DNA of 64,000 nucleotides from an uncultured Anaerolineales bacterium (GTDB lineage Bacteria; Chloroflexota; Anaerolineae; CG2-30-64-16), in assembly GCA_964474695.1 (NCBI GenBank), contig CAYYTK010000006.1, positions 95,526 to 159,525 of the forward strand, read 5' to 3'. The translations under genes and the position numbers were made by a program. How positions within the stretch are numbered: position 1 is the stretch's first letter; each line of letters starts with the position of its first letter. Of the stretch, positions 29,244-57,353 are shown one piece after another. The notes under the pieces are model-generated. The model was not told the DNA's origin and made no database searches. It saw only the letters and a list, made by a program, of their open reading frames with translations.

Positions 29244-29386
29244 TGGTAGACTGGTAACTTGGTACGTTGGTAGATTGGTGCTTGGTAGATTGGTAGGTGG
29301 TGTATTAGTTGCAGGTTCTCCGAGGCCCAGTTTCCCAACCTACCAATCTACCAATTTGCCAGTTCACCAGGTTACCAATCTACCAG
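29244..29386. repeat. family-B array: GGTAGATTGG-type units (left) facing CTACCAATC-type units (right) in a composite inverted repeat
   Basis: Read directly. Intergenic between the PLP-enzyme stop and the hydrolase start. The ORF-track entry 29153..29338 merely translates it. Confidence 0.85.
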
Positions 29387-29389
29387 TGC

Positions 29390-30850
29390 CTACAGCAGCC
29401 CAACCTTTGCGTTGAACTCCTCGATCAGTGCATCGATTTCGTCAACCTGGCCGTGCACGCCGGTCCAGTAATCCTTCTTGTACCACTGATCCTGGATCTC
29501 GGCATAGGTTCTGCCCTGCTGTTCCACCCAGGTGTAGTACTTCAGGTTGTGGACGCGTTTGCGAGCCGGATAGCTCAGCTCTTCAACGTAGTCGGTGCTG
29601 AGGCCCAGGATGTGCTGGTGGTAGGCGGCGGCCGCGTCGCGAGCCGTAAACTCGCCGCGTTCCGCAGTCAGTTCGGCCAGTCGCGAGCCGTACAGCTCCA
29701 TCGAGTCGGTCAGCAGCGTAACGACGACATCCCCCTCGCCCCACTCGTACCACTTCGCCATCTTGATGGCCGATGCGATATTCGCTGCGCCGGAGATGCC
29801 GATCAGGTCGAGTTGCTCGACCAAGGCTTCGGGCACACCCTGCTCGACCAGGTACTTGCGGCCTTCCGGCTCGTTGAACAGGCGAATCATCTGCATCGGT
29901 ACTTCGTCGTCGATGGCCATCACCATGTCGGTGTTCTTGACGTTATGGATCCACGGCACGTGCTTGTCGCCGATGCCCTCGATGCGGTGCGCGCCGAAGC
30001 CGTTGCTGAGCAGGGTGGGACACTGTAACGCCTCGCTGGCCGCGATCTTGCTCTGCGGGAACAGCTCCTTGAGGCGATCCCCTGCATTGATCGTGCCCGC
30101 CGAACCGGTAGTGAAGACCGAGCCGCGCAGGGTCTCGCCGGGCCGCAGCTCCTTCTCCAACACCTCGGCAAACGCGTTGCCGGTGATGGCGTGATGCCAC
30201 AGGACGTTGCCGAACTCCTCGAACTGGTTGAAGATCATCAGGTCTTGGCCCGAGCGCCGCAGCTCCCAGCACTTGTCGAAGATCTCCTTGACGTTGCTCT
30301 CGGTGCCGGGCGTGGCGATGACCTCGCCCGCGACCTTGCTCAACCACTCGAAGCGTTCCTTGCTCATCCCTTCAGGCAGGATCGCGATGGACTGGCAGGC
30401 CAGCAGCGCAGAGTCGTATGCGCCACCGCGGCAGTAGTTGCCGGTGGAGGGCCATACGGCTTTCTGGGTGGTCGGGTCGAACTGGCCGGTCACCAGACGG
30501 GGGACCAGGCAGCCGAACGCCGCCCCGACCTTGTGCGCGCCGGTGGGGAACCACTTGCCCACCAGCACCAGGATGCGTGCGTCCACACCGGTGAGCGCCT
30601 TTGGCAGCTCCAGGTAGTTGACGCCGCCGAACCCACCGCCCTTAGCCACCGGTTCATTTTTCCAGGTGATGCGGAACAGGTTCAATGGGTTGAGGTCCCA
30701 CAGGCCGACGTTCTTCAGGCCCGCATTGATCTTGGCGGGAGCCGAAGCCGGGTTTTGCATCTGCTTGAAGGTCGGCACGATGATATTGCGCTCGCGCGCC
30801 CGCTTAACGGTGCGTTCGAGGCGGTCAGGATGGATGGTGAGGTCGATCAT
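29390..30850 (-). CDS. fold-type-II PLP-dependent enzyme, tryptophan-synthase-beta-like (possible C-N lyase; YgeX-analogous?)
   Basis: TGAHKVGAAFG lysine motif (compare TrpB HTGAHKINN; DAP ammonia-lyase NAFKMLGGAYA). 486 aa from MIDLTIHPDR. RBS GGAGAT. Confidence 0.65.
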   Translation of the reverse strand: MIDLTIHPDRLERTVKRARERNIIVPTFKQMQNPASAPAKINAGLKNVGLWDLNPLNLFRITWKNEPVAKGGGFGGVNYLELPKALTGVDARILVLVGKWFPTGAHKVGAAFGCLVPRLVTGQFDPTTQKAVWPSTGNYCRGGAYDSALLACQSIAILPEGMSKERFEWLSKVAGEVIATPGTESNVKEIFDKCWELRRSGQDLMIFNQFEEFGNVLWHHAITGNAFAEVLEKELRPGETLRGSVFTTGSAGTINAGDRLKELFPQSKIAASEALQCPTLLSNGFGAHRIEGIGDKHVPWIHNVKNTDMVMAIDDEVPMQMIRLFNEPEGRKYLVEQGVPEALVEQLDLIGISGAANIASAIKMAKWYEWGEGDVVVTLLTDSMELYGSRLAELTAERGEFTARDAAAAYHQHILGLSTDYVEELSYPARKRVHNLKYYTWVEQQGRTYAEIQDQWYKKDYWTGVHGQVDEIDALIEEFNAKVGLL

Positions 30851-30948
30851 GTTTATATCTCCGTAGAAGGATGGCCAGCAGTGAGTGCTCAGTGACGAGT
30901 AACCGAGCACTCATCTGACTTTTCTGTGTATCTAGATGCGCGACGCGG

Positions 30949-32277
30949 CTATTTGCCGAGTACGCGCTTCACATCAGCCAGGTCTTTGTCCACGATCGCC
31001 GGCTCGCCCACGCTCTTGCGGGCCGAGGCGATATCCTTGAGCCCGTTGCCGGTGGAGAGGACAACGATGCGCTCTTCGGGATCTACCAGGCCGTCTGCTA
31101 CTGCCTTGACCAACCCGGCATAGGCGGCCGCTCCGGCCGGCTCGGCAAAGACGCCGCTGCCGCGGGCCAGGGTTGGGATTGCGGCCAGGATTTCCTCGTC
31201 GGTCACCTTGATGTAGGCGCCGTTTGTCTCGCGCACCGCTGCCAGCCCCTTGATGCGGTCCGCAGGCAGGCCGGCCGAGATGCTGTCTGCGATCGTGTGG
31301 GCGTCGATGGGCTTCATCTCCGTGGCGCGGATGCCCGTCCGCCACGCGTCATATAGCGCGGCTGATCCCGCGGCCTGCACGCCCATGAGCTTCGGCATCT
31401 TTTTGATCCAGCCCAAGGCCATGAGGTCTCTCAGGCCTTTGTGCAGCCCGCCGATGATGCAGCCGTCGCCCACGCTCACGAAGATGCGGTCCGGCGCATC
31501 CCACTGTAGGGGCGGGTTTTGAGACACATCGCGCTGCGGCTTTTCGGCGCCGATCAAACCCACCCCTACCTGCGCGGATTGCGATCCGATCGAAATCTGT
31601 TCGCAAATCTCATATGCGGCAGTCTTCTTCCCCTCGCTCATGTAGGGGTTATAGCCGGTGTTGCGGTTGTACCAGCCGAACTCCTTGGCCGCCTCGGCGC
31701 AGAGCTCGAAGGCATCGTCGTAGGTGCCGCGCACCAGGATCACGGTGCTGCCGTACACCAGCAGTTGGGCGACCTTGGCCGGCGGCGCCGATTCGGGTAC
31801 GAAGATGACGTTCTTTTGGCCCACGCTGGCGCACTGCACCGAGAGCGCAGCCCCGGCATTTCCCGTGCTGGAGGTGGTGATGATCTCGGCCCCGCGTTCT
31901 TGCGCCTTGACTACTGCAATCACGCTGGCGCGATCCTTGAACGATGCGCTGGGCTGCCGGCCTTCATCCTTGACCCAGACGTTTTGCAGGCCCAGGCCGG
32001 CCGCTAAACGATCGGCGCGGTACATCGGCGTCCACCCAACCGTCAGCGGCGGCGTCGGGCTGTCAGCCTTGACCGGCAGCAAGGGCTTGTAGCGCCAGAT
32101 GGTGGCATCGCGATCCTGGGCCAATGAGGCGGGGCTGATGCGCTGCCGGATCCGCTCGTAATCGTACTGCACATCTACGATGCCATCGTCGCCGTGATGG
32201 GGGCAAACATATTCGATCTCATCCGGCCGATACTCCGCGCCGCAGATGAGGCACTTGAGGGATTTTACGTGATCCAT
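30949..32277 (-). CDS. threonine-synthase-like PLP enzyme with N-terminal zinc ribbon
   Basis: CLICGAEY...CPHHGD Zn ribbon. SFKDRASV PLP-lysine motif. Gly-rich TSSTGNAG loop. AGGAGG RBS upstream of ATG 32277. Confidence 0.75.
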   Translation of the reverse strand: MDHVKSLKCLICGAEYRPDEIEYVCPHHGDDGIVDVQYDYERIRQRISPASLAQDRDATIWRYKPLLPVKADSPTPPLTVGWTPMYRADRLAAGLGLQNVWVKDEGRQPSASFKDRASVIAVVKAQERGAEIITTSSTGNAGAALSVQCASVGQKNVIFVPESAPPAKVAQLLVYGSTVILVRGTYDDAFELCAEAAKEFGWYNRNTGYNPYMSEGKKTAAYEICEQISIGSQSAQVGVGLIGAEKPQRDVSQNPPLQWDAPDRIFVSVGDGCIIGGLHKGLRDLMALGWIKKMPKLMGVQAAGSAALYDAWRTGIRATEMKPIDAHTIADSISAGLPADRIKGLAAVRETNGAYIKVTDEEILAAIPTLARGSGVFAEPAGAAAYAGLVKAVADGLVDPEERIVVLSTGNGLKDIASARKSVGEPAIVDKDLADVKRVLGK

Positions 32278-32278
32278 G

Positions 32279-32950
32279 CTACCTGTCTCCCTCCTCCTTT
32301 CGATATCGTTCCGCGATCTCCCGGATTTGCACCAGGTGCTCGCGCTCGTGCTCCAGCGCGCGTCGGGCAACCTTGCGAGGGGTCCACTCCTCGCCAGAGT
32401 GCACCGTCACCCGGCCCCGAGTGTCGTCGCTCAGGGCGCGCAAGCTGTCGGTGAGCAGGCTGCGTGTGGCGGTCAGGCGTTCAAAGAGGTCACCGGGCCA
32501 CTGCTTCAGGCGCTGGACGTACCACCAGTCTGCGTTGCCGATATGGCTCAGGATCTCGCGGATCGAATAAATATTCGGGTTGGGTTTCCAATCCAGCGCG
32601 GCCGGCGGCAGCTTCGAGACAGCCTCCAGCAGCTCATCCCGGCTGATCTCGAGCCACTGCGCCAACTGCTCAGCTTCGTTGGGCATCAGGGGATTGGTGT
32701 CGGATGGGAAGATCGAGCCGGCGCATTCTCGGACATCCAACTCGATCTTATCAGTCTCGCGCGGCACGCCGCTCACGCCTGCGTGGATCAGGAGCGCAAG
32801 GTAGGCCCTCAACGTCTCCTGACAGCGCGCGACTGCCTCTTTCTTGGTGATCCCTCTGCCGACGCACCCCGGAATGGCCGGGATGTGCGCCAGATAACCG
32901 CCCTCTTGGAGGGTCTCGGCGTCGCATTCCAGGTAGACGACATATTTCAT
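32279..32950 (-). CDS. HicB-like (UPF0150) N-terminal domain fused to a DinB/YfiT-like C-terminal domain
   Basis: MKYVVYLECDAETLQEGGYLAHIPAIPGCVGRGITKKEA is the HicB antitoxin fold. C-terminal W/H-rich DinB_2-like segment (HIGNADWWY...HEREH). GGAGGTG RBS. Confidence 0.5.
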   Translation of the reverse strand: MKYVVYLECDAETLQEGGYLAHIPAIPGCVGRGITKKEAVARCQETLRAYLALLIHAGVSGVPRETDKIELDVRECAGSIFPSDTNPLMPNEAEQLAQWLEISRDELLEAVSKLPPAALDWKPNPNIYSIREILSHIGNADWWYVQRLKQWPGDLFERLTATRSLLTDSLRALSDDTRGRVTVHSGEEWTPRKVARRALEHEREHLVQIREIAERYRKEEGDR

Positions 32951-32987
32951 GTCTGCACCTCCGCGCTGAGGACGCAAAAGCGGAGCT

Positions 32988-33014
32988 GCCGGCCGCTAGA
33001 ACCTAGCGGCCGGC
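32988..33014 (-). terminator. 12-bp perfect stem (GCCGGCCGCTAG-AAC-CTAGCGGCCGGC) downstream of the carbamate kinase gene
   Basis: On the minus strand it is followed by AGCTCCGCTTTTG. Possible attenuating terminator between arcC and the next gene. Confidence 0.35.
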
Positions 33015-33029
33015 CTGCCATTTCTAACT

Positions 33030-33998
33030 TCAATCGGGCACGATGTGCGTGCCGGTCTCCCCGCGCAGCGCGCGGCCGATGTTCTCCGGGTTGGTGATGA
33101 TCGCGTGTTTGCCGCCGTTCTCCAGATACCAGATGATCGCCTGGATCTTCGGCGCCATTGAGCCTTTAGCGAAGTGCTTGCCCTCGGCCAGATATTGCTT
33201 CGCCTCGGCGAGGGTCAGGCGATCCAGCCATTGCTGATCCGGCTTGCCGAAATTGATCGCGACCTTCTCGACGGCGGTGGAGATCAGGAACAAGTCGGCA
33301 TTGACGCTCTGCGCCAGCAGGCTGGACGCGTAGTCCTTGTCGATCACCGCGGCCGTGCCCTGGTAGTTGCCGGTGCCGGGATCGATGACCGGGATGCCGC
33401 CGCCGCCGACCGTAATGACCACGACGCCCGCCTTCAGCAGCGCCTTCACGGTGTCTAGCTCAACCACCTCTTTCGGCAGCGGGGATGCCACCACGCGGCG
33501 CCAACCGCGGCCTGCATCCTCGACCACCGACCAGTTCATCTCTGCCTCGCGGCGTTTGGCTTCCGCTTCGCCCATGAAGCCGCCAATCGGTTTCGTGGGA
33601 TTCTTGAACGCCGGATCGTTGCGATCCACCAATACCTGGGTGATGACCGTCGCGACGTTCTTGTTGATCTTGCGCTCGAACAGCCAGTTCTGCAGGGTCT
33701 GTTGGAGCGCATAACCGATGGCGCCCTGGCTGTCCGCACCGCAGACGTCCAGCGGCACCTCGTGCATTCCTTCAACCTTGGCCGCGATCTCGGAGCGGCG
33801 CAGGATGAAGCCGACCTGCGGCCCATTGCCGTGGCCGATGGCGACATCCCACCCCGCTTCGATCATGTCGGCGATGTGGAATGTGGTCTCCTTTGAGGCA
33901 TTATACTGGTCTTCGACCGATTGATGCTTGGCGTCCGAAATCAGTGAATTGCCGCCGATAGCGACGACTGCGACTTTACGGGAAGTGGTTTGGGTCAT
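33030..33998 (-). CDS. arcC: carbamate kinase
   Basis: VVAIGGNSL...HGNGPQVG carbamate-kinase N-terminal signature. ATG 33998 has an AAGGAG RBS. The ORF-track N-terminal extension is translated family-B repeat. Confidence 0.85.
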   Translation of the reverse strand: MTQTTSRKVAVVAIGGNSLISDAKHQSVEDQYNASKETTFHIADMIEAGWDVAIGHGNGPQVGFILRRSEIAAKVEGMHEVPLDVCGADSQGAIGYALQQTLQNWLFERKINKNVATVITQVLVDRNDPAFKNPTKPIGGFMGEAEAKRREAEMNWSVVEDAGRGWRRVVASPLPKEVVELDTVKALLKAGVVVITVGGGGIPVIDPGTGNYQGTAAVIDKDYASSLLAQSVNADLFLISTAVEKVAINFGKPDQQWLDRLTLAEAKQYLAEGKHFAKGSMAPKIQAIIWYLENGGKHAIITNPENIGRALRGETGTHIVPD

Positions 33999-34017
33999 AT
34001 ATGTGCTCCTTCGGAAG

Positions 34018-34052
34018 GGTAGATTGGTAGATTGGTAAGTTGGCAAATTGGG
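34018..34052. repeat. family-B units (GGTAGATTGGTAGATTGGTAAGTTGG)
   Basis: Lies between the arcC start and the four-helix-bundle gene stop. Confidence 0.85.
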
Positions 34053-34059
34053 ATATGGG

Positions 34060-34524
34060 TCATGTCTCATCAGCGCCGATTGGGAAAGGCGTGATTTCGT
34101 AGAGTGGCCCTTCTTCATGCACGGCGACACGGTCACCATATTCCTGGCGGCCCTGTTGCTGGCCGCGCACATAGCGAATGTAGCCATTCAGTGACCGCAA
34201 GGCGCTATGGCAGAGCTGGCGTTGGGCAGGCAGCTCGCCCTTGGTGTAACCGAGAACATCACAAGCGATGAACTGGCTCAGCGTTTCCTCGAGCGATCCG
34301 CGGGCGATATAAAAGAAACGGAGGCAGTCGAGGTAGTGATAACGTCCGTAACCTTCAGCGATGTTGAATCCTACGCTGGTGGATGCCTTCCGCATCTGCA
34401 GCCCCAGGTTGTACTTCTCCTCAGGCGGCAACGTCTGTATCACCCGATAGGCCGCGCGCATCACCTGGAGCGCCAACTGATAGCACTCCAGATCCTCGAA
34501 CCCCCGCTGCTCCTTTTGTTCCAT
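34060..34524 (-). CDS. four-helix-bundle protein of the '23S rRNA intervening-sequence protein' family
   Basis: ECYQLALQV...FNIAEGYGR...ARGSL.E motif pattern typical of that family; about 150 aa. Confidence 0.65.
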   Translation of the reverse strand: MEQKEQRGFEDLECYQLALQVMRAAYRVIQTLPPEEKYNLGLQMRKASTSVGFNIAEGYGRYHYLDCLRFFYIARGSLEETLSQFIACDVLGYTKGELPAQRQLCHSALRSLNGYIRYVRGQQQGRQEYGDRVAVHEEGPLYEITPFPIGADET

Positions 34525-34546
34525 TGACGCCCCAATCCACCACTCG

Positions 34547-34735
34547 GGATTTGGTAGAATGATGACGAGGTAAATTGGTAACTTGGGAGCTGATACTGGC
34601 CCCCCAATTCACCAGGCCACCAATCTACCAATTACCAATCTACCAATCTACCAATCTACCAATTACCAATCTACCAATCTACCAATTACCAATCTACCAA
34701 TTTACCAATTACCAATCTACCAATTACCAATCTAC
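34547..34735. repeat. largest family-B array: about 15 tandem CCAATCTA / CCAATTA units preceded by inverted GGTA-ATTGG units
   Basis: Read directly. Sits between the carbamoyltransferase stop (34732) and the four-helix-bundle gene start. The ORF-track entry 34583..34792 merely translates it. Confidence 0.9.
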
Positions 34736-35718
34736 ATCGTGAGTGCCATCACGGCCTTCTGCGCGTGCAGTCGGTTCTCTGCTTCGTCGTAGACCACTGA
34801 GTTCGGCCCATCGATGACGCCATCGGTGACTTCGATGTTGCGGTCGGCGGGCAGCGGGTGCATGTAGATGGCATCGGGCTGCGCCAGCGCCATCTTGCGC
34901 TCGTCGGTGATCCAGTTCTTGTAGGTGTCCTGGAGCTTCTTGCCCTCGACCTTGTCGGCGGTGGTGAGCAGCGGGCCCCACGACTTGGCATAAATGACGT
35001 CCGCGTCCTTGAACGCGATGTCCATGCCGTTTACGTCTTCGACGATTTCGAAGCTGGTCTTGTACTTGCGCGCCTGTTCCTCGGCCATTCCCACGATCTC
35101 AGGCATCAGTTGGAAGCCGGGCGGATAGGCGAGGGTCACGTCCATGCCGAAGCGCGGCATCTGCACGATCAGCGACTGCGGCACCGAGATCGGCTTGAGA
35201 TACGACGCCGCGTACGCCCATGAGACGACGATCTTCTTCTTGCGCAGATCGCGGCCCTTCTTCTCCATGATGGTCATCAGGTCGGCCAGGCACTGGAAGG
35301 GGTGGTAGATGTCGCACTGCATGTTGAGCACGGGCACGCGCGACGCCTTGGCAACTGCGTTGATGTACTTGTTGCCGTCCAGCCAGTCGCAGTGGCGGAT
35401 GGCGATCCCGTCGAAGTAGCGGCCGAAAATCTCGCCGATCTCTTTCGGCGTGTCGCCGTGTGAGATCTGGGTGGTGTTGGAGTCAATGAATGCGCCGTGC
35501 CCGCCGAGCTGCGCCATGCCTGCTTCGAACGAGCCGCGGGTGCGGGTGCTGCTGAAGAAAAACAGCATCGCCAACACCTTGTCGCGCAGATACGCATGGG
35601 GTTCGTTCAGCGCGCGCTTGCGCTTCAGATCGAACGCCACGTCCAGTACAGTCTCGACCTCCTCCTTCGAGAAGTCAAGATCACCGATAAGGTCACGACC
35701 GTGAAGATAGGTTTGCAT
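34732..35718 (-). CDS. aspartate/ornithine carbamoyltransferase family protein (specificity unassigned)
   Basis: SSTRTR carbamoyl-phosphate motif, HPFQCLAD and MHPLPA motifs. 328 aa. Confidence 0.75.
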   Translation of the reverse strand: MQTYLHGRDLIGDLDFSKEEVETVLDVAFDLKRKRALNEPHAYLRDKVLAMLFFFSSTRTRGSFEAGMAQLGGHGAFIDSNTTQISHGDTPKEIGEIFGRYFDGIAIRHCDWLDGNKYINAVAKASRVPVLNMQCDIYHPFQCLADLMTIMEKKGRDLRKKKIVVSWAYAASYLKPISVPQSLIVQMPRFGMDVTLAYPPGFQLMPEIVGMAEEQARKYKTSFEIVEDVNGMDIAFKDADVIYAKSWGPLLTTADKVEGKKLQDTYKNWITDERKMALAQPDAIYMHPLPADRNIEVTDGVIDGPNSVVYDEAENRLHAQKAVMALTM

Positions 35719-35730
35719 AGGATTCTCCTT

Positions 35731-36759: not shown

Positions 36760-36790
36760 GCCACAAAGGTTTTGTGATCACTGTAGGGGC

Positions 36791-36882
36791 AGGTCTTGCA
36801 CCTGCCCCCACAGATGCGGCATGTATGTCGGCGGCATACGCGCCATTGGGCCTTTGTGTCTTTGTGTCTCTGTGTTTTTGTG
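36791..36882. repeat. 9-bp-stem hairpin (GGGGCAGGT-CTTGC-ACCTGCCCC) followed by CTTTGTGT tandem octamers (x4, imperfect)
   Basis: Read directly. Intergenic between the ygeY stop and the carbamoyltransferase start. Confidence 0.8.
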
Positions 36883-36883
36883 G

Positions 36884-46208: not shown

Positions 46209-46240
46209 GCTACCTTCTCCTTTGTGATGGTAAGATTGGA

Positions 46241-48321: not shown

Positions 48322-48517
48322 GGCTTACCTCCGAGGGTAGATGTGATGAACAAGGGAGTGCATCAGCAGTGGTACGGTGGTGTGGATGGTGAAGGCGAAA
48401 AGCAGGCGGTGGCTGGCAGGACGCACAGCCACTCAGGGGGGAAACGCTATTCGGGTTGTGGTTCTGCATAGGCGATTCGCTCCAAGCAGCAGCCATTGCT
48501 TGTTGGATCGGACCTGG

Positions 48518-48546
48518 AATCCTCAGACGTCTGACGTCTGAGGATT
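48518..48546. promoter_or_regulatory. 29-bp perfect palindrome (AATCCTCAGACGTC-T-GACGTCTGAGGATT); candidate operator
   Basis: Read directly. Abuts the -10 element of the promoter below. Candidate binding site for one of the two GntR regulators in the operon. Confidence 0.4.
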
Positions 48547-48575
48547 AGATTATCACGGATTTCACGAGTTGTCAA
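48547..48575 (-). promoter_or_regulatory. near-consensus sigma70-type promoter of the nucleoside-ABC / XDH operon
   Basis: On the minus strand: TTGACA (48575-48570), 17-nt spacer, TAATCT (48552-48547). About 225 nt upstream of the first permease ATG. Confidence 0.4.
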
Positions 48576-48708
48576 GAGGGTAAAAGAATGAGTTTACGAA
48601 GCTGGTCCGGCGGCACGCCCTCCGATGCCTGCGGGCACGCGACTTCGGAGGGCGTGTTGGGGCGCTGGGAAACCGGTCTCACCGCGGCGGGTGAAGTGCC
48701 CACCCGGC

Positions 48709-49704
48709 CTATGTCCAGCTACCCAGCACCTTCATGTAGTTGGCCCGCTCGAAAGCGGTGGCATCGGCCACATTGCGCTGGCTGAGTGCGCCTTTCATCT
48801 GGCCGACCGACTCGTACTCGTGGAGTTCCATCCATTGCTGCAGGCCGGCCACCATATCACCGATTTTGCCGACGCCTTGGCCCAGCAGCACCGAGGCCAT
48901 GGTCGCGATATCTGCGCCGGCCATGATGGCCTTGACGACATCTTCCGCCGTGTCGACGCCGGTGCTGAGGGCCAGGGATGCGTTGATGCGGCCGTAAAGG
49001 ATGGCGATCCAACGCAGCGGCAGGCGCATCTCCCACGACGTGCTCAGCACCAGGTGCGGCGTGACGGCCAACTCCTCCAGGTCAAAGTCAGGCTGGTAGA
49101 AGCGGTTGAACAACACCAGGCCATCGGCGCCCGCACGATCGAGCCGAGCAGCCATATTGGGCAGCGCGCTGAAGAACGGGCTCAGCTTCATCGCTACCGG
49201 GATTTTCACCTGCGCCTTGACTTCGCGCAGGATCTCCAGATAGGTGTTTTCCACGCCCTCGCTTGTTAGCTCTGGCCGCGTAGGGATCAGGTAGACATTC
49301 AATTCCAGCGCATCCGCGCCAGCCTGCTCGATCAGCTTGGCGTAACGCGTCCAGCCGCCGGTGGTGACGCCGTTCAGGCTGCCGATAACAGGGATGTCTA
49401 TGGCAGCCTTGGCCTTGCGGATCAGTTCCAGATAGTCGTCCGGGCCGCCCTGGTAGTCTTTCGCCTTGGGGAAGTAGGACGTTGCTTCAGCCGACATGAA
49501 AGCTTCCTGCTCAACGGCAAGATGTTGAGTCATAGCTTCAATGTCGATTTGTTCCTCAAACAGCGAATACATCGTGACCGCCGCTGCACCGGCATCTTCC
49601 ATGGCTTTGATACCGCTGAGGCGCCGCGACAGCGGCGATGCTGACGGCACAATGGGGTTCTTGAGCTTAAGGCCCATATAGCGAGTCGTGAGATCTAGCA
49701 CCAT
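48709..49704 (-). CDS. dihydroorotate-dehydrogenase-like / dihydropyrimidine-dehydrogenase PreA-like TIM-barrel flavoprotein
   Basis: FMN-binding barrel of the DHOD/DHPD family (...PVIGSLNG...GADALELN...) over about 330 aa. Confidence 0.7.
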
Positions 49705-49729
49705 TAGATCGCTCCTCTCTTGATGGAAG

Positions 49730-49875
49730 GTGACAAATCGGCAGATTGGTGAACCAATGCATCAATCCATCGGCGTCCTGCTATTAGAAACTGGTGGATC
49801 GGCAACTTGCCATCAAGAATGCCGGATCCACCAGTTCACGCATCTACCAGTTTACCACTCTACCGGTCTACCAGT
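49730..49875. repeat. diverged family-B-like region: 14-bp-arm hairpin (CTGGTGGATCGGCA...TGCCGGATCCACCAG, 49791-49834) plus CTACCAGT-type units
   Basis: Read directly. Intergenic between the PFOR stop and the DHOD-like start. Confidence 0.75.
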
Positions 49876-52800
49876 TCACTCTTTCGCGAAGCTCAGCGCC
49901 GCCATCTGCTCCAACTGGCGCCAGCGTGCCAAGACATCCTCTTGGGCCAGGTTGAGCAGCATCTCGGCATGTTCCTCGTCGCGCTTGGCCAACGAGCTGT
50001 AGCGGGTCTCCCGGTAGACGTAATCTTTCAGCGGGATTTTCGGCGCCTTGGAATCCAACGACAGCGGGTTCTTGCCTGCGGCCGCGCTGGTCGGATTATA
50101 GCGGTAGAGCGGCCAGGCGGCGCTGTCCACGGCCAGCTTTTGTTGGCCCATGCCCAAGGTCATGTTGATGCCATGCGCGATGCAGTGGCTGTAGGCGATA
50201 ATCAGGCTGGGGCCAGGGTATGCCTCAGCTTCCAGAAACGCTTTGACAGTCTGGGCATCGTTGGCGCCCATGGCCACCTGGGCGACGTAAATCGTCCCCT
50301 GGCTCATGGCGATGGCGCCCAGGTCTTTCTTGGAAATCGGCTTGCCGCCGGCTGCGAAGCGGGCCACCGCAGCGCGCGGGGTTGCCTTCGACGCCTGGCC
50401 GCCGGTGTTGGAGTAGACCTGCGTATCGAGCACCAGGACATTGATATCCAGCCCTGATGCCAACACATGATCCAGGCCGCCGTAGCCGATATCATAGGCC
50501 CAGCCGTCGCCGCCCATGATCCACACGCTGCGCTTCACCAGCATGTCGGCGATGCTGTTGAGCTGCGCGGCCCACGAGTCGGTCAGGCCCGCGAGCTTCG
50601 TCTTGAGCTCGACAACGCGGGCGCGCTGTTCGGCGATGCCTTTCTCACTGCTCTGATCGGCGGACAGCAGCCCGTCGACGAGCGCATCCCCTAACTCAGC
50701 GCGGTGTGTTTGGGCAAGCTCGCGCGCGAACTCATTGTGCTTGTCGACGGTCAAACGGAAGCCCATGCCGAACTCGGCATTATCTTCGAAGAGGCTGTTG
50801 GACCACGCCGGGCCGCGGCCTTCCTTATCCTGCGCCCAAGGCGTCGTCGGCAGGTTGCCGCCGTAGATGGAAGAGCAGCCGGTTGCATTGGCGACGATAG
50901 CGCGATCGCCGAAGAGTTGGCTGACCAGCTTGACATAGGGGGTCTCGCCGCAGCCTGAGCATGCGCCGGAGAACTCAAAGAGCGGTTGGAGCAATTGCGA
51001 ATTCTTGACGCTGTTCAGCGGGATCACCGTGCGGTCCAGCTCAGGCAGATCCAGGAAGAACTTGAAGTTGGCGCGCTCGGCGAAGCGGAGCGGCAGTTGG
51101 GGCTCCATGTTGATCGCCTTGTGCTTGGGTTCGCTCTTGCTCTTGGCCGGGCAGTTCTCAACACACAGGGCGCAGCCGGTGCAGTCTTCCGGCGCGACCT
51201 GGACGGTGTACTTCATGCCGGGCAGATCGCGGCTCTTGTAATCCACCGCCTTATAGGTCTCGGGCGCGCCGGCCAGGCTCTCCGGCGGGTAGACCTTGGT
51301 GCGGATGGCCGCGTGCGGGCACACCAGCGCGCACTTGCCGCACTGGATGCAGATCGAGGGATCCCAAACCGGAATTTCCAGCGCCAGGTTGCGTTTTTCC
51401 CACTGCGTGGTCGCCGTGGGCCAGGTGCCATCCACCGGGAACGCCGAAACAGGCAAGTTCTCGCCCTCGCCGAAGATGATCCGCGCCGTGACATCCTTGA
51501 CGAACGCCGGCGCCTCGTCGGAGACCGGCGACTCCCTCTTGAGCTTGCTGGTGACCTCGTTCGGGTACTTTACCTCGTACAGGTGCGTCAGCGTGTGATC
51601 TACGGCCGCGAAGTTCTGCTGCACCACCACCTCGCCGCGCTTGCCGTACGTATGGCGGATCGACTCCTTGATCTTCGCGATCGCCTCATCCTTGGGCAGC
51701 ACGCCGGAGATGGCGAAGAAGCAGGTCTGCATGATGGTGTTGATGCGGCCGCCCATGCCGGTCGCCTGCGCAACGCCGACCGCGTCGATGACGTAGAACT
51801 TCAGCTTCTTTTCGATGATCTGCGCCTGCACTTCCTGCGGGATACGATCCCAGACCTCATCCGGGCCGTAGGGGCTGGCGAGCAGGAAGGTCGCGCCCAC
51901 CTCCGCCTTGGCCAGCACGTTGACGCGCTCCAGGAAGGTCCACTGATGGCAGGCGATGAAGTTGGCGGACTCGATCAGGTTGGACAGGCGGATCGGCTCC
52001 GGGCCGAAGCGCAGGTGCGAGGTTGTGACCGTGCCGGCCTTCTTCGAGTCATAGTAGAAGTAGCCCTGGGCGTAGTTGTCGGTTTCCTGGCCGATGATGC
52101 GGATGGAGTTGTGGTTTGCGCCCACCGTGCCATCCGATCCCAGGCCGTAGAACAGCGCGCGCACGGCCCGCTTCGACTCGATGCTGTAGGTGGGGTCGTA
52201 GGCCAGGCTGGTGTGAGTGACATCGTCGTTGATACCGACGGTGAAGTGGTTCTTCGGAGTGCCTGCCGCCATGTTGTCGAACACGCCCTTGACCATCGCC
52301 GGCGTGAATTCCTTGCTGGCCAACCCGTAGCGCCCGCCCAGCACCTTGAATGTGCGGCCCATCTCGGCCGCGGCGGTCACGACGTCCTGGTAGAGCGGTT
52401 CGCCCGCGCTGCCCGGTTCCTTGCAGCGATCGAGCGCCGTCACGATCTTCGCGCTCGCCGGGATCGCGGCCATCAGGAGCTCGGCGCTGAACGGCCGGAA
52501 GAGATGCACCTTCACCACGCCGACCTTCTCGCCGCAGCAGCCGGCCAGGTCATCCACTGTACCGTGTGCAATATCCGCCGCGGAGCCCATCAGGACCAAA
52601 ACGCGCTCTGCATCGGGTGCGCCGACGTAATCGAAAAGCTGATACTGGCGGCCGGTCAGCTTGGCGAACTTATCCATCTCGTCCTGGACGATGGTCGGAA
52701 CGGCCAGGTAATACGAATTGGCCGCCTCACGCGCCTGGAAGTAGACGTCGGGGTTCTGGGCCGTGCCGCGGATGATCGGGCGTTCGGGATTCAGCGCACG

Positions 52801-53418
52801 TTGGCGGTGGGCGAACACCAGGTCATCGTCGATCATCGCGCTGATGTCCTCGTCGCTCAGCTCTTCGATCTTGCGGATCTCATGGCTGGTGCGGAAGCCA
52901 TCGAAGAAATGGATGAAGGGCACGCGCGACCGCAGCGTGGCAGCCTGGGCGATCAGCGCGATATCCATGACCTCTTGGGGATTGTTCGAGCAGAGCATGG
53001 CCCAGCCGGTGGACCGCGCGGCCATCACGTCGCTATGATCACCGAAGATCGAGAGGGCATGCGCTGCCAGTGCGCGGGCCGCGACGTGGAAAACCGTCGA
53101 GGTCAGCTCGCCCGAGATCTTGAACATGTTGGGGATCATGAGCAAGAGGCCTTGTGATGCGGTGAAGGTGGTGCTCAGGGCGCCGGTTTGCAGTGCACCG
53201 TGCACTGCGCCGGCCGCGCCGCCTTCCGATTGCATCTCAACCACAGTCGGCACCGTGCCCCAGATGTTCTTGCGCCCTTCAGCGCTCCACGCATCGGCCC
53301 ATTCGCCCATGTTGCTGGACGGCGTAATGGGGTAGATGGCGATGACTTCGTTGGTCTTGTGCGCAACGTAGGCGGCTGCCTCGTTGCCGTCAATGGTGAC
53401 GATTTCACGTCCTGACAT
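49876..53418 (-). CDS. pyruvate:ferredoxin (flavodoxin) oxidoreductase, single-polypeptide NifJ/PFOR type
   Basis: About 1180 aa with the PFOR domain order. Two 4Fe-4S motifs (CIQCGKCALVCP; CTGCALCVENCP), TPP-binding region and GGDGW motif. GGAGGG RBS at ATG 53418. Confidence 0.9.
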   Translation of the reverse strand: MSGREIVTIDGNEAAAYVAHKTNEVIAIYPITPSSNMGEWADAWSAEGRKNIWGTVPTVVEMQSEGGAAGAVHGALQTGALSTTFTASQGLLLMIPNMFKISGELTSTVFHVAARALAAHALSIFGDHSDVMAARSTGWAMLCSNNPQEVMDIALIAQAATLRSRVPFIHFFDGFRTSHEIRKIEELSDEDISAMIDDDLVFAHRQRALNPERPIIRGTAQNPDVYFQAREAANSYYLAVPTIVQDEMDKFAKLTGRQYQLFDYVGAPDAERVLVLMGSAADIAHGTVDDLAGCCGEKVGVVKVHLFRPFSAELLMAAIPASAKIVTALDRCKEPGSAGEPLYQDVVTAAAEMGRTFKVLGGRYGLASKEFTPAMVKGVFDNMAAGTPKNHFTVGINDDVTHTSLAYDPTYSIESKRAVRALFYGLGSDGTVGANHNSIRIIGQETDNYAQGYFYYDSKKAGTVTTSHLRFGPEPIRLSNLIESANFIACHQWTFLERVNVLAKAEVGATFLLASPYGPDEVWDRIPQEVQAQIIEKKLKFYVIDAVGVAQATGMGGRINTIMQTCFFAISGVLPKDEAIAKIKESIRHTYGKRGEVVVQQNFAAVDHTLTHLYEVKYPNEVTSKLKRESPVSDEAPAFVKDVTARIIFGEGENLPVSAFPVDGTWPTATTQWEKRNLALEIPVWDPSICIQCGKCALVCPHAAIRTKVYPPESLAGAPETYKAVDYKSRDLPGMKYTVQVAPEDCTGCALCVENCPAKSKSEPKHKAINMEPQLPLRFAERANFKFFLDLPELDRTVIPLNSVKNSQLLQPLFEFSGACSGCGETPYVKLVSQLFGDRAIVANATGCSSIYGGNLPTTPWAQDKEGRGPAWSNSLFEDNAEFGMGFRLTVDKHNEFARELAQTHRAELGDALVDGLLSADQSSEKGIAEQRARVVELKTKLAGLTDSWAAQLNSIADMLVKRSVWIMGGDGWAYDIGYGGLDHVLASGLDINVLVLDTQVYSNTGGQASKATPRAAVARFAAGGKPISKKDLGAIAMSQGTIYVAQVAMGANDAQTVKAFLEAEAYPGPSLIIAYSHCIAHGINMTLGMGQQKLAVDSAAWPLYRYNPTSAAAGKNPLSLDSKAPKIPLKDYVYRETRYSSLAKRDEEHAEMLLNLAQEDVLARWRQLEQMAALSFAKE

Positions 53419-53462
53419 CTCTTTCCCTCCGAACGGTTGTGAATGATGCGCGCTAAATACGT

Positions 53463-53493
53463 GCGAACTGCGCGGCAAAAACGGACCCCCTGT
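53463..53493 (-). terminator. rho-independent terminator of the upstream minus-strand ABC-transporter operon
   Basis: On the minus strand: GCGGACCCGACAGGGGGTCCG followed by TTTTTG. Confidence 0.5.
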
Positions 53494-53599
53494 CGGGTCC
53501 GCAACTAGCAGCGTTGCTGGTGTGCTAATACAAGCTAGGATAACACTGCCTGCGTGCCAAGGCTATGACAGACGTCATACGATAGGGAGTCCATACGGG

Positions 53600-54571
53600 T
53601 CAGCGCCCGCGTTCCCCGCGCACATACGGCAACCCCAGCGCGGCCGGCGCACCGATGCGTTTTTTCATCGCCTCGCGCGAGCCGATCACCAGGATGATGA
53701 TCACCAGGGCGTAAGGCACCATTTGCAGAAAGAACCCTAGTTTCGGCGCATAGAAGAACGGATTCTTGAACCCCAGCAGCATCTGCGGCCCCTGAAGGTC
53801 AAGGATCAGCCGGCGCAGCGCGCCGAACATGTACCCCCCTGCGGCCGCCCGCCAGGGGTTCCATTGAGCGAAAATCACCAGGCCAACCGCGATCCACCCT
53901 TGCCCCCCTGTTGTCAGCTCGCTGAACCAGCCGGGCGACACCGCCAGGCTGATCGTCGCACCGGCTAACCCGGCAAGCAGGCCGCCGATGAAGACATACA
54001 GATAGCGCAGTCCATAGACGTTGATCCCCAATGCATCGGCGGCCGAGGGATACTCACCCACCGCGCGCAGGTGCAGGCCCGGCCGCGTGCGGTTGATGTA
54101 CAACCAGACCGCCGGCGTCAACAGATAGCCCAGATACACCATGGGGCTGTGATTGGTGAACATGACCGGGCCGAGGAGGGGAATCTTCGACAGGACGGGG
54201 ATGGTCCACATGGGCAGCAGTGATACCGCGCCCGCCTTGCTCAGCCCCTCGCCCAGCACCATGCTCAAGCCGATGCCCACGAAGTTGATGGCGAGGCCGC
54301 TGACCACCTGGTCGGCCTGGAAATTGATAGTTACCACCGCGTGAAGCAGCGCCAGGATGCCGGCCGCCAGCATGGCGTAGAGCACCCCCTGCCACGGGTG
54401 GCCGGTCTTGACCGCGGTGCTGTAGGCGGTCATCGCGCCGATCAGCATCATGCCCTCGACGCCGAGGTTCATCACGCCTGATCGCTCGGCCAGGATCTCG
54501 CCGATTGCCGCGAACAGAAGCACCGTTCCGCTCGCAATGCCTGCTTGGAGGATGATGATCCAGTCAATCAT
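53600..54571 (-). CDS. ABC transporter permease (second BMP-type system)
   Basis: Polytopic membrane protein homologous to 46241..47188. Confidence 0.8.
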   Translation of the reverse strand: MIDWIIILQAGIASGTVLLFAAIGEILAERSGVMNLGVEGMMLIGAMTAYSTAVKTGHPWQGVLYAMLAAGILALLHAVVTINFQADQVVSGLAINFVGIGLSMVLGEGLSKAGAVSLLPMWTIPVLSKIPLLGPVMFTNHSPMVYLGYLLTPAVWLYINRTRPGLHLRAVGEYPSAADALGINVYGLRYLYVFIGGLLAGLAGATISLAVSPGWFSELTTGGQGWIAVGLVIFAQWNPWRAAAGGYMFGALRRLILDLQGPQMLLGFKNPFFYAPKLGFFLQMVPYALVIIILVIGSREAMKKRIGAPAALGLPYVRGERGR

Positions 54572-54580
54572 GGGACCTTC

Positions 54581-55696
54581 CTACTTCCGCACCAAACGCA
54601 CTCGATACCGCAGCAGCACATCGCTGGCGATCACGCAGAACAGAATAATGCCCTGGAGCATGCGCGGGACGCCGGACGGCTGGATTTCGCGGCCTGCCTG
54701 GATCAGGCCGCCGAACAGGATGGCGACCAGGATCACCGCGTAGGGGTTGAGCTTGGCCAGCCAGGCGATGATGATCGCTGTGAAGCCGTAGTTCGATGAA
54801 ATCGCGCCCTGCAACCGGTGCACGACGCCGGAAACCTCGGACATACCGGCTAACCCCGCCAGCCCGCCCGAAACCAGCATCACCATTACGGTGTTCTTGA
54901 CGATATCGACGCCCGCGTAATGCGCCGCGCGGCTGTTGTCGCCGATCAAGCGGATCTCATAGCCCCAGCGGCTGCGGGAAATGATGAACCACACCACCAC
55001 CACAGCAACGAGACCTAGAACGATGCCGAAGTGCAGCGTCAGGCCGCTGAAGATCTTGACCTGCTTGGCATAATCGAGCAGCCGCGGCATCCACGCGCTC
55101 TTGGGGAACTGCGGCGACATCTGGAAGCCTGCCTCGCTCCAGGCGCCGAAGACCCAGAACAACACCCACGACGTCGCAATGTAGTTCATCATCAGCGTTG
55201 TGATGATCTCATTGACTTTGAACTTGGCTTTTAGATAGCCGGGAACAAAGCCCCACAGCGCACCGCAGACAAAGCCGGCCAGCGCCATCGCGGTCAGCAT
55301 GATGGGGCGCGGCGTGCTGGCAGGCAGGATCGGGACCAGCACGACCGCGCTTGCCCCCCAGGCTCCCAGGAAGAACTGCCCCTCAGCGCCGATGTTCCAG
55401 AGCTTCATGCGGAAGGCCAGCGTACACGCCAGCCCCAACAGGATCAGTGGAATGGCCTTGATCAGGGTGTCGTTGAACACCCCCAGGTTGCCGAAGGCGG
55501 CTTCGACGATGTGCTTGTAAGCGGCGAACGGGTGCCCGCCCGCCGCCTGGATCACAATCCCGCCGATGATGAACGCCACGATCAGCGCGCCGATCGACGT
55601 AGCGAACGGCAGCCAGCCCGGCGTCGTCAGCCGCCGCTCGGTGCGGATGGCATACGGGAAGCGAAATCCCCTCGTAGCGTTTTCACTTATGGCCAT
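54581..55696 (-). CDS. ABC transporter permease (second BMP-type system)
   Basis: Polytopic membrane protein homologous to 47185..48321. Confidence 0.8.
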   Translation of the reverse strand: MAISENATRGFRFPYAIRTERRLTTPGWLPFATSIGALIVAFIIGGIVIQAAGGHPFAAYKHIVEAAFGNLGVFNDTLIKAIPLILLGLACTLAFRMKLWNIGAEGQFFLGAWGASAVVLVPILPASTPRPIMLTAMALAGFVCGALWGFVPGYLKAKFKVNEIITTLMMNYIATSWVLFWVFGAWSEAGFQMSPQFPKSAWMPRLLDYAKQVKIFSGLTLHFGIVLGLVAVVVVWFIISRSRWGYEIRLIGDNSRAAHYAGVDIVKNTVMVMLVSGGLAGLAGMSEVSGVVHRLQGAISSNYGFTAIIIAWLAKLNPYAVILVAILFGGLIQAGREIQPSGVPRMLQGIILFCVIASDVLLRYRVRLVRK

Positions 55697-57239
55697 AGCC
55701 TGCCCCCTGCTGTGCGCTTTCGCCGCGCGCTGTGCCGGCCATCATCAAGCCGATCTCGGTCAGTGTAGCCTCTTCGGCCTTCAACTCGCCCATATTCCGG
55801 CCCTCGTAGATGCCTACGATGCGATCGGACAGGGACATGATCTCCTCGAGCTCCTCGGAGATCAACAGGATGGCGGTGCCGTTCTCGCGTTCGCGCAGCA
55901 GCACGCGCTGCACCGCTTCGATCGCGCCTACATCCAGCCCGCGGGTGGGTTGCACCGCAATAATCAACTTCGGCCCGGCGGTCATCTCGCGCGCCAGGAT
56001 CGCCTTTTGCAGGTTGCCGCCTGAGAGCAGGCGCACTTGCACATCCACGTTGGGCGCCGCGATATCGTACTCCTTCTTCAGCGTGCTGGCTTGTTGGCGG
56101 ATCACGGGGCGGTTGAGGATCCATCCGCGTGAGATGGGCGATGTGCGATAACTCTTCATGATCAAGTTGTCCGCCATGCTCAGGCCCGGCGAGCTGCCGA
56201 CATGGTGGCGGTCTTCAGGGATATGCGCGACGCGGCGTTTGATGGCCGCATTCGGTTCTTTGTTGGCGATATCTTCTCCGTTGACGATCACACGACCACA
56301 AGAACACTGGCGCAATCCGGTGATGACCTGCGCTAACTCACTCTGCCCGTTGCCCGCCACGCCTGCAATGCCTACGATTTCGCCGGCATGCACCTGGATG
56401 CCAAATTCACGCAAAGCGGGCACGCCGCGATCGTTCTCGGCGCAGACATTCTCGACTGAGAGCACGACATCGCCGGCCGGAAGCGGTTTCTTGTCGACCG
56501 CAAAGACAACCTCGCGACCGACCATGAGTTGCGCCAATTGGGCTTTGGTCACGCCCTCCGTGCTGAGCCCGGCCGCCGTGACCTTGCCGCCGCGCAACAC
56601 GGTCACGCGGTTGGCGATGGAGAGCACCTCATGTAGTTTATGGCTGATGAAGACGATGGAATGGCCCTCGGCGACCATCGAGCGCAGGGTGACGAACAGT
56701 TCGTCGATTTCCTGTGGGGTTAGAACCGCGGTCGGCTCATCCATGATGAGGACCTTGGCGCCCCGGTAGAGCATTTTCAAAATCTCGACGCGTTGCTGCT
56801 CGCCGACCGAAAGCTGCCAAATCTTCGCTTTGGGATCGACCTTGAGGCCGTACTGCTCCTGAAGGGAGAGGATTTTCTTGTCCAACGCGTCCAACGCCAG
56901 GACAAATCGTGGCTCTGACAAGCCGAGGATGATGTTCTCTGTCACCGTTTGAGACGGGACCAGCATGAAGTGCTGGTGGATCATGCCGATGCCGGCCGTG
57001 ATAGCATCGCGTGGCGAGCCAAAATTAACGCGCCTGCCATCGACAAAGATCGTACCCTCTTCCGCCTTGTACATGCCGGCCAGCACATTCATCAAGGTGC
57101 TTTTGCCTGCGCCGTTTTCGCCCAAAAGCGCGTGCACTTCACCCTGGCGGAGGTCGAAATCTACATGATCATTGGCGAGGACACCAGGAAAACGTTTGAC
57201 GATGCCCCGCATCTCGACAGCATTGACGATCTCGGGCAT
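55683..57239 (-). CDS. ABC transporter ATP-binding protein, duplicated ATPase domains (second system)
   Basis: Walker A GENGAGKSTLM, signature motif and Walker B, each twice. Start at MPEIVNAVEMRGIVKRF. The upstream ORF-track extension is translated repeat. Confidence 0.85.
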   Translation of the reverse strand: MPEIVNAVEMRGIVKRFPGVLANDHVDFDLRQGEVHALLGENGAGKSTLMNVLAGMYKAEEGTIFVDGRRVNFGSPRDAITAGIGMIHQHFMLVPSQTVTENIILGLSEPRFVLALDALDKKILSLQEQYGLKVDPKAKIWQLSVGEQQRVEILKMLYRGAKVLIMDEPTAVLTPQEIDELFVTLRSMVAEGHSIVFISHKLHEVLSIANRVTVLRGGKVTAAGLSTEGVTKAQLAQLMVGREVVFAVDKKPLPAGDVVLSVENVCAENDRGVPALREFGIQVHAGEIVGIAGVAGNGQSELAQVITGLRQCSCGRVIVNGEDIANKEPNAAIKRRVAHIPEDRHHVGSSPGLSMADNLIMKSYRTSPISRGWILNRPVIRQQASTLKKEYDIAAPNVDVQVRLLSGGNLQKAILAREMTAGPKLIIAVQPTRGLDVGAIEAVQRVLLRERENGTAILLISEELEEIMSLSDRIVGIYEGRNMGELKAEEATLTEIGLMMAGTARGESAQQGAGYGHK

Positions 57240-57260
57240 GGGGTACCTCACGGGGAGTCG

Positions 57261-57353
57261 GTGAATTGGTAAATTGGTAGATGGTAAATTGGTAGATTGG
57301 TGCCCCATGAGCCAGATTGAATGGCCCGGCCTACCAATCTACCAATCTACCAG
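57261..57353. repeat. family-B composite inverted repeat (GTGAATTGGTAAATTGGTAGATGGTAAATTGGTAGATTGG ... CTACCAATCTACCAATCTACC)
   Basis: Read directly. Lies between the SBP stop and the ATPase start. Confidence 0.85.

Follow-up and report, generated by a model that had tools for sequence, protein, structure and literature searches.

The short tandem-repeat arrays scattered through a 64,000-nt stretch of DNA from an uncultured Anaerolineales bacterium (hereafter the window, meaning the whole stretch; labels such as L120 or L158 denote comparison loci) are instances of a palindromic element, built of tandem repeats, that Chloroflexota commonly carry. An earlier note, made from the letters of this DNA, had listed six intergenic array sites. 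However, the array at 15371-15430 is intragenic and in frame, and those at 34018-34052 and 34547-34735 are the two flanks of one inserted gene, at 34060-34524, which that note had missed and whose product belongs to the PF05635/TIGR02436 family. The explanation that we favour, with a confidence somewhat above even, is that the element is a selfish stem-ORF-stem cassette (ORF, open reading frame) with a layout like that of the 23S ribosomal RNA (rRNA) intervening sequences, accompanied by ORF-less copies, similar to miniature inverted-repeat transposable elements (MITEs), whose arms vary by slippage. The window loci other than 34018-34735 are best read as such ORF-less, MITE-like derivatives of the cassette.

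All listed arrays are present in the window as described, by direct reading of the letters. The 15-mer TACCAATCTACCAAT has 23 matches in the window with up to two mismatches, versus 0.01 expected from shuffled sequences. With Tandem Repeats Finder, arrays of period 8 mixed with 7, containing 3 to 15 copies, were detected at 29244-29296, 29335-29385, 34018-34051, 34619-34735, 49843-49875, 57260-57301, 57331-57352 and 15370-15423. The largest is 34619-34735 with 15.2 copies, in which the mixing of 8- and 7-nt units gives rise to higher-order periods of 15 and 23 nt. At each paired locus an GGTAGATT-type arm lies on the left and a CTACCAAT-type arm on the right. The general order of the element is a 5' arm of G-rich, C-poor 8- or 7-nt units (GGTAGATT, GGTAAATT, GGTAGAT), a short spacer, and a 3' arm of complementary C-rich units (AATCTACC and variants). 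The composite inverted hairpins proposed earlier are borne out by these facing arms; the minus-strand RNAs of the window loci are predicted to form hairpins with folding energies between -34 and -69 kcal/mol (z-scores relative to shuffled sequences between -4.0 and -6.5).

In mRNA sense, the inserted gene is preceded by the stop codon of an ornithine carbamoyltransferase (OTC) gene and about 15 G-rich units, and is followed by about 4 C-rich units and the ribosome-binding site of a carbamate kinase (CK) gene. The last unit of the upstream arm itself provides the TAG stop (34732-34734) of the OTC gene, and a short return arm at 34547-34618 follows the units of 34619-34735. The scores of the gene product exceed the curated cut-offs of both PF05635 and TIGR02436, a family named '23S rRNA intervening-sequence protein', which forms a four-helix bundle and whose sole solved relative is 2GSC. 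Here the cassette is not in a 23S rRNA helix; it is located between the OTC and CK genes, which are only 1-14 nt apart in most relatives, and a search of the whole window against Rfam at gathering thresholds gave no matches, hence no rRNA. No promoter-like site was seen at the window cassette, and its PF05635 gene may depend on read-through transcription.

The association of arrays and gene is not confined to the window. Among the comparison loci, 15 of 19 PF05635 genes have complementary flanks, counted as such when the upstream flank had at least five 7-mers in common with the downstream flank read as its reverse complement, versus 15% of other ORFs. At almost every PF05635 gene a G-rich array extends up to the ribosome-binding site and a complementary array lies past the stop codon. 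When the arrays are taken as the starting point, adjacent pairs in G-first order that are more than 150 nt apart have a PF05635 gene inside in 12 of 13 cases, and the wide pair 34018-34051/34619-34735 of the window is of this kind; the gap of the exception is only 160 nt, and no cargo other than PF05635 was seen in the 13 pairs. In addition, the PF05635 protein clades match the unit families of the arms. Window-type proteins (67-92% identity) are found with GGTAGATT/AATCTACC arms at three unrelated genomic sites, namely the OTC-CK spacer (window, L018, L128, L219 and L229), a position between sulfotransferase and oxidoreductase genes (L209 and L210), and one between hydroxyacyl-CoA dehydrogenase and enoyl-CoA hydratase genes (L233). 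The arms found with clade-1 proteins are of the ACAAGGAA/CTTGTCTA family, and L126 is no exception although GGTAGATT hairpins occupy adjacent spacers of that operon. The flanking enzymes of L123 are 93-95% identical to those of the window, but its PF05635 protein is only 49% identical and its arms are of another family, and therefore gene and arms have been exchanged together. It is to the cassette, and not to the site, that the arms belong.

Loss of the ORF from a cassette can leave an ORF-less hairpin, as a MITE arises from its parent, and one such case was found. The 87-nt OTC-CK spacer of L146 aligns to the 601-nt cassette of L158 with the ORF removed by a gap of about 510 nt; the G-rich arm together with 'gacaaggaggcaggtgt', which comprises the ribosome-binding site and start region, is identical at 67 of 80 positions, and the C-rich arm at 28 of 32.

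A translated search of plasmids with the window PF05635 protein returned 20 records, 18 of them cyanobacterial. Fifteen plasmid PF05635 genes were inspected, 14 from cyanobacteria and one from Gemmatimonadota. Inverted 7-8-nt arrays with the G-rich arm upstream flank ten of them, arrays that are not inverted accompany three, and arrays are absent at two. The gene lies between (GGGAGTA)8 and (TCCCTAC)5 in Nostoc edaphicum, between (GGGTGTA)n and (TACACCC)n in N. punctiforme and Calothrix, and between (GGGGAAA)n and (CCCTTTT)n in Nostoc ATCC 53789; in Picosynechococcus it stands with inverted arrays between cas10 and cmr3. These arrays are heptamers of the type known as short tandemly repeated repetitive (STRR) sequences, and the layout in cyanobacteria may help explain the origin of such repeats.

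Some further observations concern PF05635 genes elsewhere. In L235, L237 and L240, cyanobacterial PF05635 genes stand within other operons (between the pairs cas10/cmr3 and cas6/cas4 and between ribonucleotide reductase genes), and the arrays on the two sides of the L237 gene, (AAAGCTA)n and (AAAGCCA)n, are long and direct, not inverted. Among the protein-database matches P0121-P0240, most contigs with close PF05635 homologues are shorter than 2 kb and barely exceed the gene, which fits with flanking repeats breaking short-read assemblies on both sides. The contig of L021 opens (positions 1-70) with a Nextera adapter (AGATGTGTATAAGAGACAG) directly upstream of a PF05635-like ORF, an adapter contamination in a public metagenome-assembled genome (MAG).

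An exact search for (CTACCAAT)3 with one genome per species gave at least 119 stretches, nearly all of them in Chloroflexota MAGs (Anaerolineae, Caldilineales and Chloroflexia) and distributed over at least 35 genomes. At least 13-19 loci were recovered from single genomes, and six listed loci fall within the 64-kb window. Each arm is an array with anything from 3 to more than 20 tandem units; the lengths of the arms are unequal, and the units within an arm are highly degenerate. Three loci of one genome (L030, L040 and L056) have similar central spacers and different flanks. The possibility that the arrays are confined to the gene cluster of the window and perfectly conserved in relatives is contradicted by their presence in these genomes and their variability among relatives. 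Their proposed setting inside operons stands for the five window loci between co-directional genes and does not hold elsewhere: according to crude ORF-based gene calls, 69 elements lie in a co-directional context (13 of them inside a single ORF), 31 between convergent genes and 24 between divergent genes. Arrays are also frequent at contig ends, as expected if repeats break assemblies. An assembly artefact was rejected, as many assemblies made independently, megabase contigs among them, contain the arrays, and so were clustered regularly interspaced short palindromic repeats (CRISPR), as the units abut and unique spacers are absent. A literature search for the unit sequence gave chance primer matches only.

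A few stretches of (CTACCAAT)3 belong to genomes outside the Chloroflexota, such as Vicinamibacterales, Cytophagales (a 316-nt array) and Aliivibrio (loci L016, L034, L036, L047, L063, L080, L094 and L118); in L016, L034 and L036 they are lone arrays, and an inverted partner was not found.

The order of the arms is nearly invariant. Among the GGTAGATT-family paired arrays of the window and the 119 loci, 51 are G-first, that is, 5'-(GGTAGATT)n...(AATCTACC)n-3', and none is C-first; since the element is palindromic, this order is identical on both strands. When all inverted pairs of 7-8-nt arrays detected by Tandem Repeats Finder in about 200 loci are considered, the G-rich, C-poor arm is 5' in 77 of 78, and the other unit families, at least 26 in number, are G-first in 34 of 35 pairs. 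Polarity was scored by G-minus-C content, G+T content being misleading for purine-rich families. A hairpin alone needs no G-first order, and therefore something else imposes the polarity. Apart from PF05635, no enriched neighbour gene family was found beside the arrays (119 loci, up to 8 kb around each array, arrays masked). Direct arrays occur as well: L120, from a relative, has two long (TCCCCGCG)n octamer arrays of 11-14 units each (19572-19680 and 20107-20220), in the same orientation, inside a PriA helicase gene.

Presence/absence polymorphism among close relatives, a comparison proposed in the earlier note, was seen at four orthologous sites, at which arrays have been gained, lost, resized and swapped. 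One of these sites is in the gamma-glutamyltranspeptidase (GGT) gene, where the Pfam match covers the whole protein and the element falls in a loop. About 40 of the 120 closest GGT orthologues (72-96% identity) have variable-length (GRLVD)n...(QSTNS)n inserts at the same loop, and others have no insert or inserts resembling other repeat families. At the DNA level GRLVD is GGTAGATTGGTAGAT, with a period of 8 + 7 = 15 nt, and the GGT reading frame is therefore kept; a pure octamer array would put TAG in every frame. By DNA comparison, this site holds 7 + 5 fifteen-nt units in L120 and is empty in L121. The OTC-CK spacer was compared in 80 orthologous loci, which came from a metagenome scan with CK. 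It is 1-14 nt long in about 30 of them; elsewhere it contains palindromic arrays of quite dissimilar families (among them GGTATTG/CCAATAC, GGTTGAAG/CTTCAACC, TAGTCGAG/GACTA.. and GTTCGTTG/CAACGA), and in a third group a small PF05635 gene with arrays on both sides. At the PALP2-hydrolase and CK-PALP1 junctions there is no element, a short one, a long one, or one of another unit family, depending on the relative. For example, the junction corresponding to 29244-29386 has an GTAGACAA-family hairpin in L129, a short GGTAGATT hairpin in L137 and none in L139. A different, non-tandem palindrome (CCGTCATTGCGAGC ... GCTCGCAATGACG) was noticed in the OTC-CK spacer of three metagenome loci, L149, L162 and L167.

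The individual window loci are listed in Table 1. Five of them occupy spacers between co-directional minus-strand genes, where they start 0-10 nt past the upstream stop codon and end about 20-25 nt ahead of the next start codon, so that the ribosome-binding site of the downstream gene is not covered. The array at 29244-29386 thus lies between the TAG stop of a pyridoxal phosphate (PLP)-enzyme gene (29390-30910, minus strand) and the ribosome-binding site of a hydrolase gene (28360-29220, minus strand). That at 49730-49875 lies between the TGA stop of a PFOR-like gene (49876-53478, minus strand) and the gene at 48709-49704 (minus strand), and that at 57261-57353 between the genes of a Bmp/PnrA-type binding protein (57363-58631, minus strand) and an ABC ATPase (55683-57239, minus strand). 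The C-rich strand has no stop codon in any frame, which explains why the called ORFs 33030-34187 and 55683-57308 extend into the arrays beyond their starts, at 33998 (supported by Pfam) and 57239, respectively, in agreement with the earlier remark that arrays had extended the called ORFs.

Table 1. Tandem-repeat elements of the window and the gene enclosed by two of them.
Feature	Position	Strand	Description
In-frame hairpin element in GGT gene 15029-16741(-)	15371-15430		60 nt; encodes GVVDGRLVDGSINSQSTN
ORF-less hairpin	29244-29386		G-rich arm 29244-29296, spacer 29297-29334, C-rich arm 29335-29386; RNA fold -68.7 kcal/mol, z -6.45
Downstream cassette arm (3' in mRNA sense)	34018-34052		About 4 units, (AATCTACC)n on the minus strand; ends 20 nt before the CK start at 33998
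Cargo gene, PF05635/TIGR02436	34060-34524	-	154 amino acids; Pfam E 4.7e-24, TIGR02436 E 5.9e-25, PDB 2GSC E 2.5e-14
Upstream cassette arm (5' in mRNA sense)	34547-34735		About 15 units, (GATTGGTA/ATTGGTA)n on the minus strand, at 34619-34735
Diverged ORF-less hairpin	49730-49875		CTACCAGT-type units; internal perfect GGTGGATC/GATCCACC stem; fold -63.4 kcal/mol, z -5.44
ORF-less hairpin	57261-57353		Stem of about 20 bp; fold -43.7 kcal/mol, z -6.36

Other repeats were noticed in and around the genes of the window. In the gene of the xanthine-dehydrogenase molybdopterin subunit (19804-22503, minus strand), (TTGCGTG)4 and (TGATTCGC)7 lie in frame at 20697-20778; on the sense strand this array is (GCGAATCA)n, which encodes an 8-residue peptide repeat, and it is direct, without a hairpin partner. 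The same site has 12.8 and 10.6 units in relatives (L120, 7592-7704; L121, 820-900) versus 7 in the window. At 22588-22689, two copies of GGTAGGCT, degenerate GGTAG-type units and (GCTGATTC)4 form a linker (about residues 308-342) in ORF 22158-23615 (minus strand) that joins a flavoprotein C-terminal domain to 2Fe-2S domains. The linker has the look of a spacer that once separated two genes and has since come to be translated, so that two subunits are now fused; repeats of other kinds are present in this linker of the L120 homologue. Between an M20 peptidase gene and a second carbamoyltransferase gene, the site 36775-36882 contains a lone (CTTTGTGT)4 array (36852-36882) and, apart from it, a hairpin rich in G+C (GGGGCAGGT...ACCTGCCCC). 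Where the GGT and RsmF genes meet, the window has (CACGCAC)3.4 at 15003-15026, and L121 (5715-5743) has (GCGTACT)4 instead; (GCGTACT)6.7 occurs in L120 (4215-4261), but at a different junction, upstream of the xanthine-dehydrogenase genes. Finally, between the CK and PLP-enzyme genes there is a gene for 223 amino acids with a HicB-like N-terminus (MKYVVYLEC...; 32279-32950, minus strand), for whose product NCBIfam gave no match. It is resembled in L183, and the other listed relatives have only 16-192 nt at that junction.

Under the cassette explanation, the full-length form would consist of two arms around one small PF05635/TIGR02436 gene, and the copy number of the arms would change by replication slippage. 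Mixed periods of 8 + 7 = 15 nt would preserve the frame inside genes, and insertions would survive only at harmless places, such as the interval from a stop codon to the next ribosome-binding site or a tolerant protein loop. In transcripts the arms would pair into stems of 20-60 bp; if these behave like rRNA intervening sequences, they would probably be cut by RNase III or would stop exonucleases. The polarity might have several reasons. If the arm rich in C and poor in G were transcribed first, it would offer Rho an exposed loading site; as the second arm it would pair at once. The C-poor arms would be rich in stop codons, the pure octamer having a TAG in each of the three frames, and the G-rich arm could give the cargo gene a Shine-Dalgarno-like sequence.

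Several points weigh against this explanation. Only about 2-3% of the GGTAGATT loci carry a PF05635 gene, direct proof of derivation by deletion is limited to one ORF-less hairpin, and the PF05635 gene might rather insert preferentially into the loops of pre-existing hairpins. The match between clades and units has few independent sites behind it, namely three in the window clade and a single one in clade 1, and many of the examined PF05635 loci are orthologous, so that the counts are not independent. The swapping of cassettes at the OTC-CK spacer could be homologous recombination via the conserved flanks and not transposition. No transposase, recombinase or other enzyme gene was found linked to the arrays (119 loci, up to 8 kb around each), and no target-site duplication is evident at the filled and empty GGT sites or at the OTC-CK spacer, where degenerate units blur the boundaries; mobility is therefore inferred from distribution and not from mechanism. 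The gene calls behind the context counts are crude, and RNase III cleavage of the stems and the Rho account of polarity have their basis in general knowledge.

The earlier note had left three options for the arrays, namely RNA processing or stability, transcription attenuation, and MITE-like selfish elements. The last is the best supported, as the elements are dispersed, polymorphic at orthologous sites and strict in terminal polarity, and one deletion derivative is at hand. Attenuation is excluded: no T-run follows the array hairpins in the window, no terminator- or promoter-like site coincides with the arrays, and the window arrays are not terminators. A role in RNA processing or stability is possible. 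In its full form, this would mean that the hairpins are RNA elements selected by the host, kept because they stabilise or process segments of polycistronic mRNA or uncouple the translation of neighbours. Such a role has been shown for the repetitive extragenic palindromic (REP) sequences of E. coli, and it has been proposed for the STRR hairpins of cyanobacteria. The placement of the hairpins exactly between the stop codon and the next ribosome-binding site at five window loci and the high predicted stability of the stems speak for such a role, as does a suggestion made for the STRR hairpins that separate hupS from hupL, namely that they make the transcript more stable or couple translation (PMC2670836). 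However, close relatives at four orthologous junctions have no element, another family or very different arm lengths, and elements are also found between convergent or divergent genes and inside coding loops. For 23 operon-internal elements the sense RNA is no stabler than the antisense RNA (10 versus 12, p = 0.83), and this lack of asymmetry therefore gives no pointer to selection on the sense RNA. Together with the fact that the arms are cargo of a foreign gene cassette, this leaves host selection a doubtful explanation.

We consider it improbable that the arrays are microsatellites which arose in place, by local slippage growth from a chance seed and with no copying between sites. Copy numbers do differ among orthologues (7, 10.6 and 12.8 units of GCGAATCA; 1 to 7 fifteen-nt units in GGT), higher-order periods of 15 and 23 nt exist, and the empty GGT site, GAC GGC AGC TTG TAC, resembles 1.5 units. 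But slippage accounts for the variation in length and not for the origin. The same GGTAGATT/CTACCAAT unit recurs at very many non-homologous sites in at least 35 genomes, one polarity is common to 77 of 78 pairs, L030, L040 and L056 share similar spacers despite different flanks, and the same gene with the same arms stands at three unrelated sites. Little more credit than a marginal one is given to the idea that the units are DNA or RNA binding sites for the PF05635 protein or another abundant factor. The co-variation of PF05635 clades with unit families would agree with it, Avd, a relative of the family, works in a nucleic-acid-handling complex (PMC10053308), and a heptamer-binding factor, itself unidentified, was proposed in a Nostoc study (bioRxiv 10.1101/2022.06.06.494920); on the other hand, most arrays have no PF05635 gene nearby and their units are highly degenerate within arms. 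Binding would in any case be compatible with the cassette explanation and not exclusive of it. A wider proposal, which we regard as rather unlikely, is that PF05635 proteins are dedicated partners of STRR-type hairpins across Chloroflexota and Cyanobacteria, each clade with its own 7-8-nt units being an unrecognised mobile cassette, and that the protein has a part in making or spreading the repeats. PF05635 might then bind the units and recruit a polymerase or reverse transcriptase, like Avd; if G-rich units were added from a template to the two 3' ends of a break and the ends were then joined, the G-first, head-to-head polarity would result without any further cause. If true, this would give STRRs an origin, which has been lacking since their first description.

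To our knowledge, PF05635/TIGR02436, a very large family of small proteins, is known only from rRNA intervening sequences and from its relationship to Avd. Filamentous bacteria are rich in short tandem-repeat hairpins (STRRs and related repeats), at which short-read assemblies break and by which gene callers are misled. The cassette explanation links these two orphan features, with STRR-like repeats as the arms of a PF05635 cassette, and it predicts cognate binding between clades and units, RNase III processing of the stems and polarity-dependent Rho termination. For annotation, the elements matter in that they add peptide segments to enzymes (GGT, xanthine dehydrogenase), may fuse neighbouring genes and cause false N-terminal extensions. 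In the searched literature, STRRs are not described as arms of a gene cassette or as G-first, and no paper links STRR hairpins with PF05635; the relation of arms to cassette, the match of protein clade to unit and the near-universal G-first polarity appear undescribed.

Among known systems, the GTAG motif is common to REP elements and is present in every GGTAGATT unit here. Like REP sequences and their composite forms (BIME, REPIN), the arrays are high-copy extragenic palindromes in operon spacers, with inverted doublets that form long hairpins; in contrast to REP and REPIN elements with their RAYT transposases, the arms are variable tandem arrays and not a fixed unit of about 35 nt (a palindrome of about 20-40 nt), and genes of Y1-transposase-like (IS200/IS605-like) or other enzyme families were not enriched beside the 119 loci, up to 8 kb around each. 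As with MITEs, non-autonomous palindromic copies outnumber the gene-carrying form, the termini are inverted, and one internal deletion derivative is seen; Rickettsia palindromic elements likewise insert in frame into protein genes and add a peptide segment. Unlike both, the long form has a 150-amino-acid helical protein and no recognisable transposase, its termini are tandem repeats, and no target-site duplication was seen in the comparisons above. Intrinsic terminators and attenuators differ by the T-run after a G+C-rich stem, which the window arrays lack. The named STRR1-3 sequences are not those of the window units. Within the same phylum, Chloroflexus aurantiacus has dispersed (GATAGRA)n satellites that were suggested to have transposed (PMC6749651); these too are short-unit tandem arrays scattered in a genome, but the unit is another one, the host belongs to the class Chloroflexia, and no hairpin pairing, polarity or gene association was reported for them (PMC6749651).

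The closest likenesses are to two other systems. STRR hairpins consist of 7-nt tandem units, are dispersed in genomes, are often inverted between co-transcribed genes and have no known function (PMC2670836). Tandem units of about 7 nt, many dispersed loci and inverted arrays capable of forming hairpins are all features of the window arrays, and PF05635 genes in cyanobacteria are flanked by STRR-type arrays too; the differences are that STRR hosts are cyanobacterial, whereas the hosts here are Chloroflexota with GGTAGATT/CTACCAAT units, mainly of 8 nt mixed with 7. The 23S rRNA intervening sequences are excised by RNase III without harm to the host RNA (PMC2672173; PMC10053308), and PF05635 proteins are uncharacterised relatives of the retroelement accessory protein Avd (PMC10053308). 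Intervening sequences and the present cassette have in common the PF05635 family, the stem-ORF-stem layout and pairing inverted repeats around the ORF, but the former lie in rRNA helices and the latter in mRNA spacers and a protein loop, with stems made of tandem short units. The element is thus best described as one that resembles both STRR-like hairpin repeats and intervening-sequence-like PF05635 cassettes.

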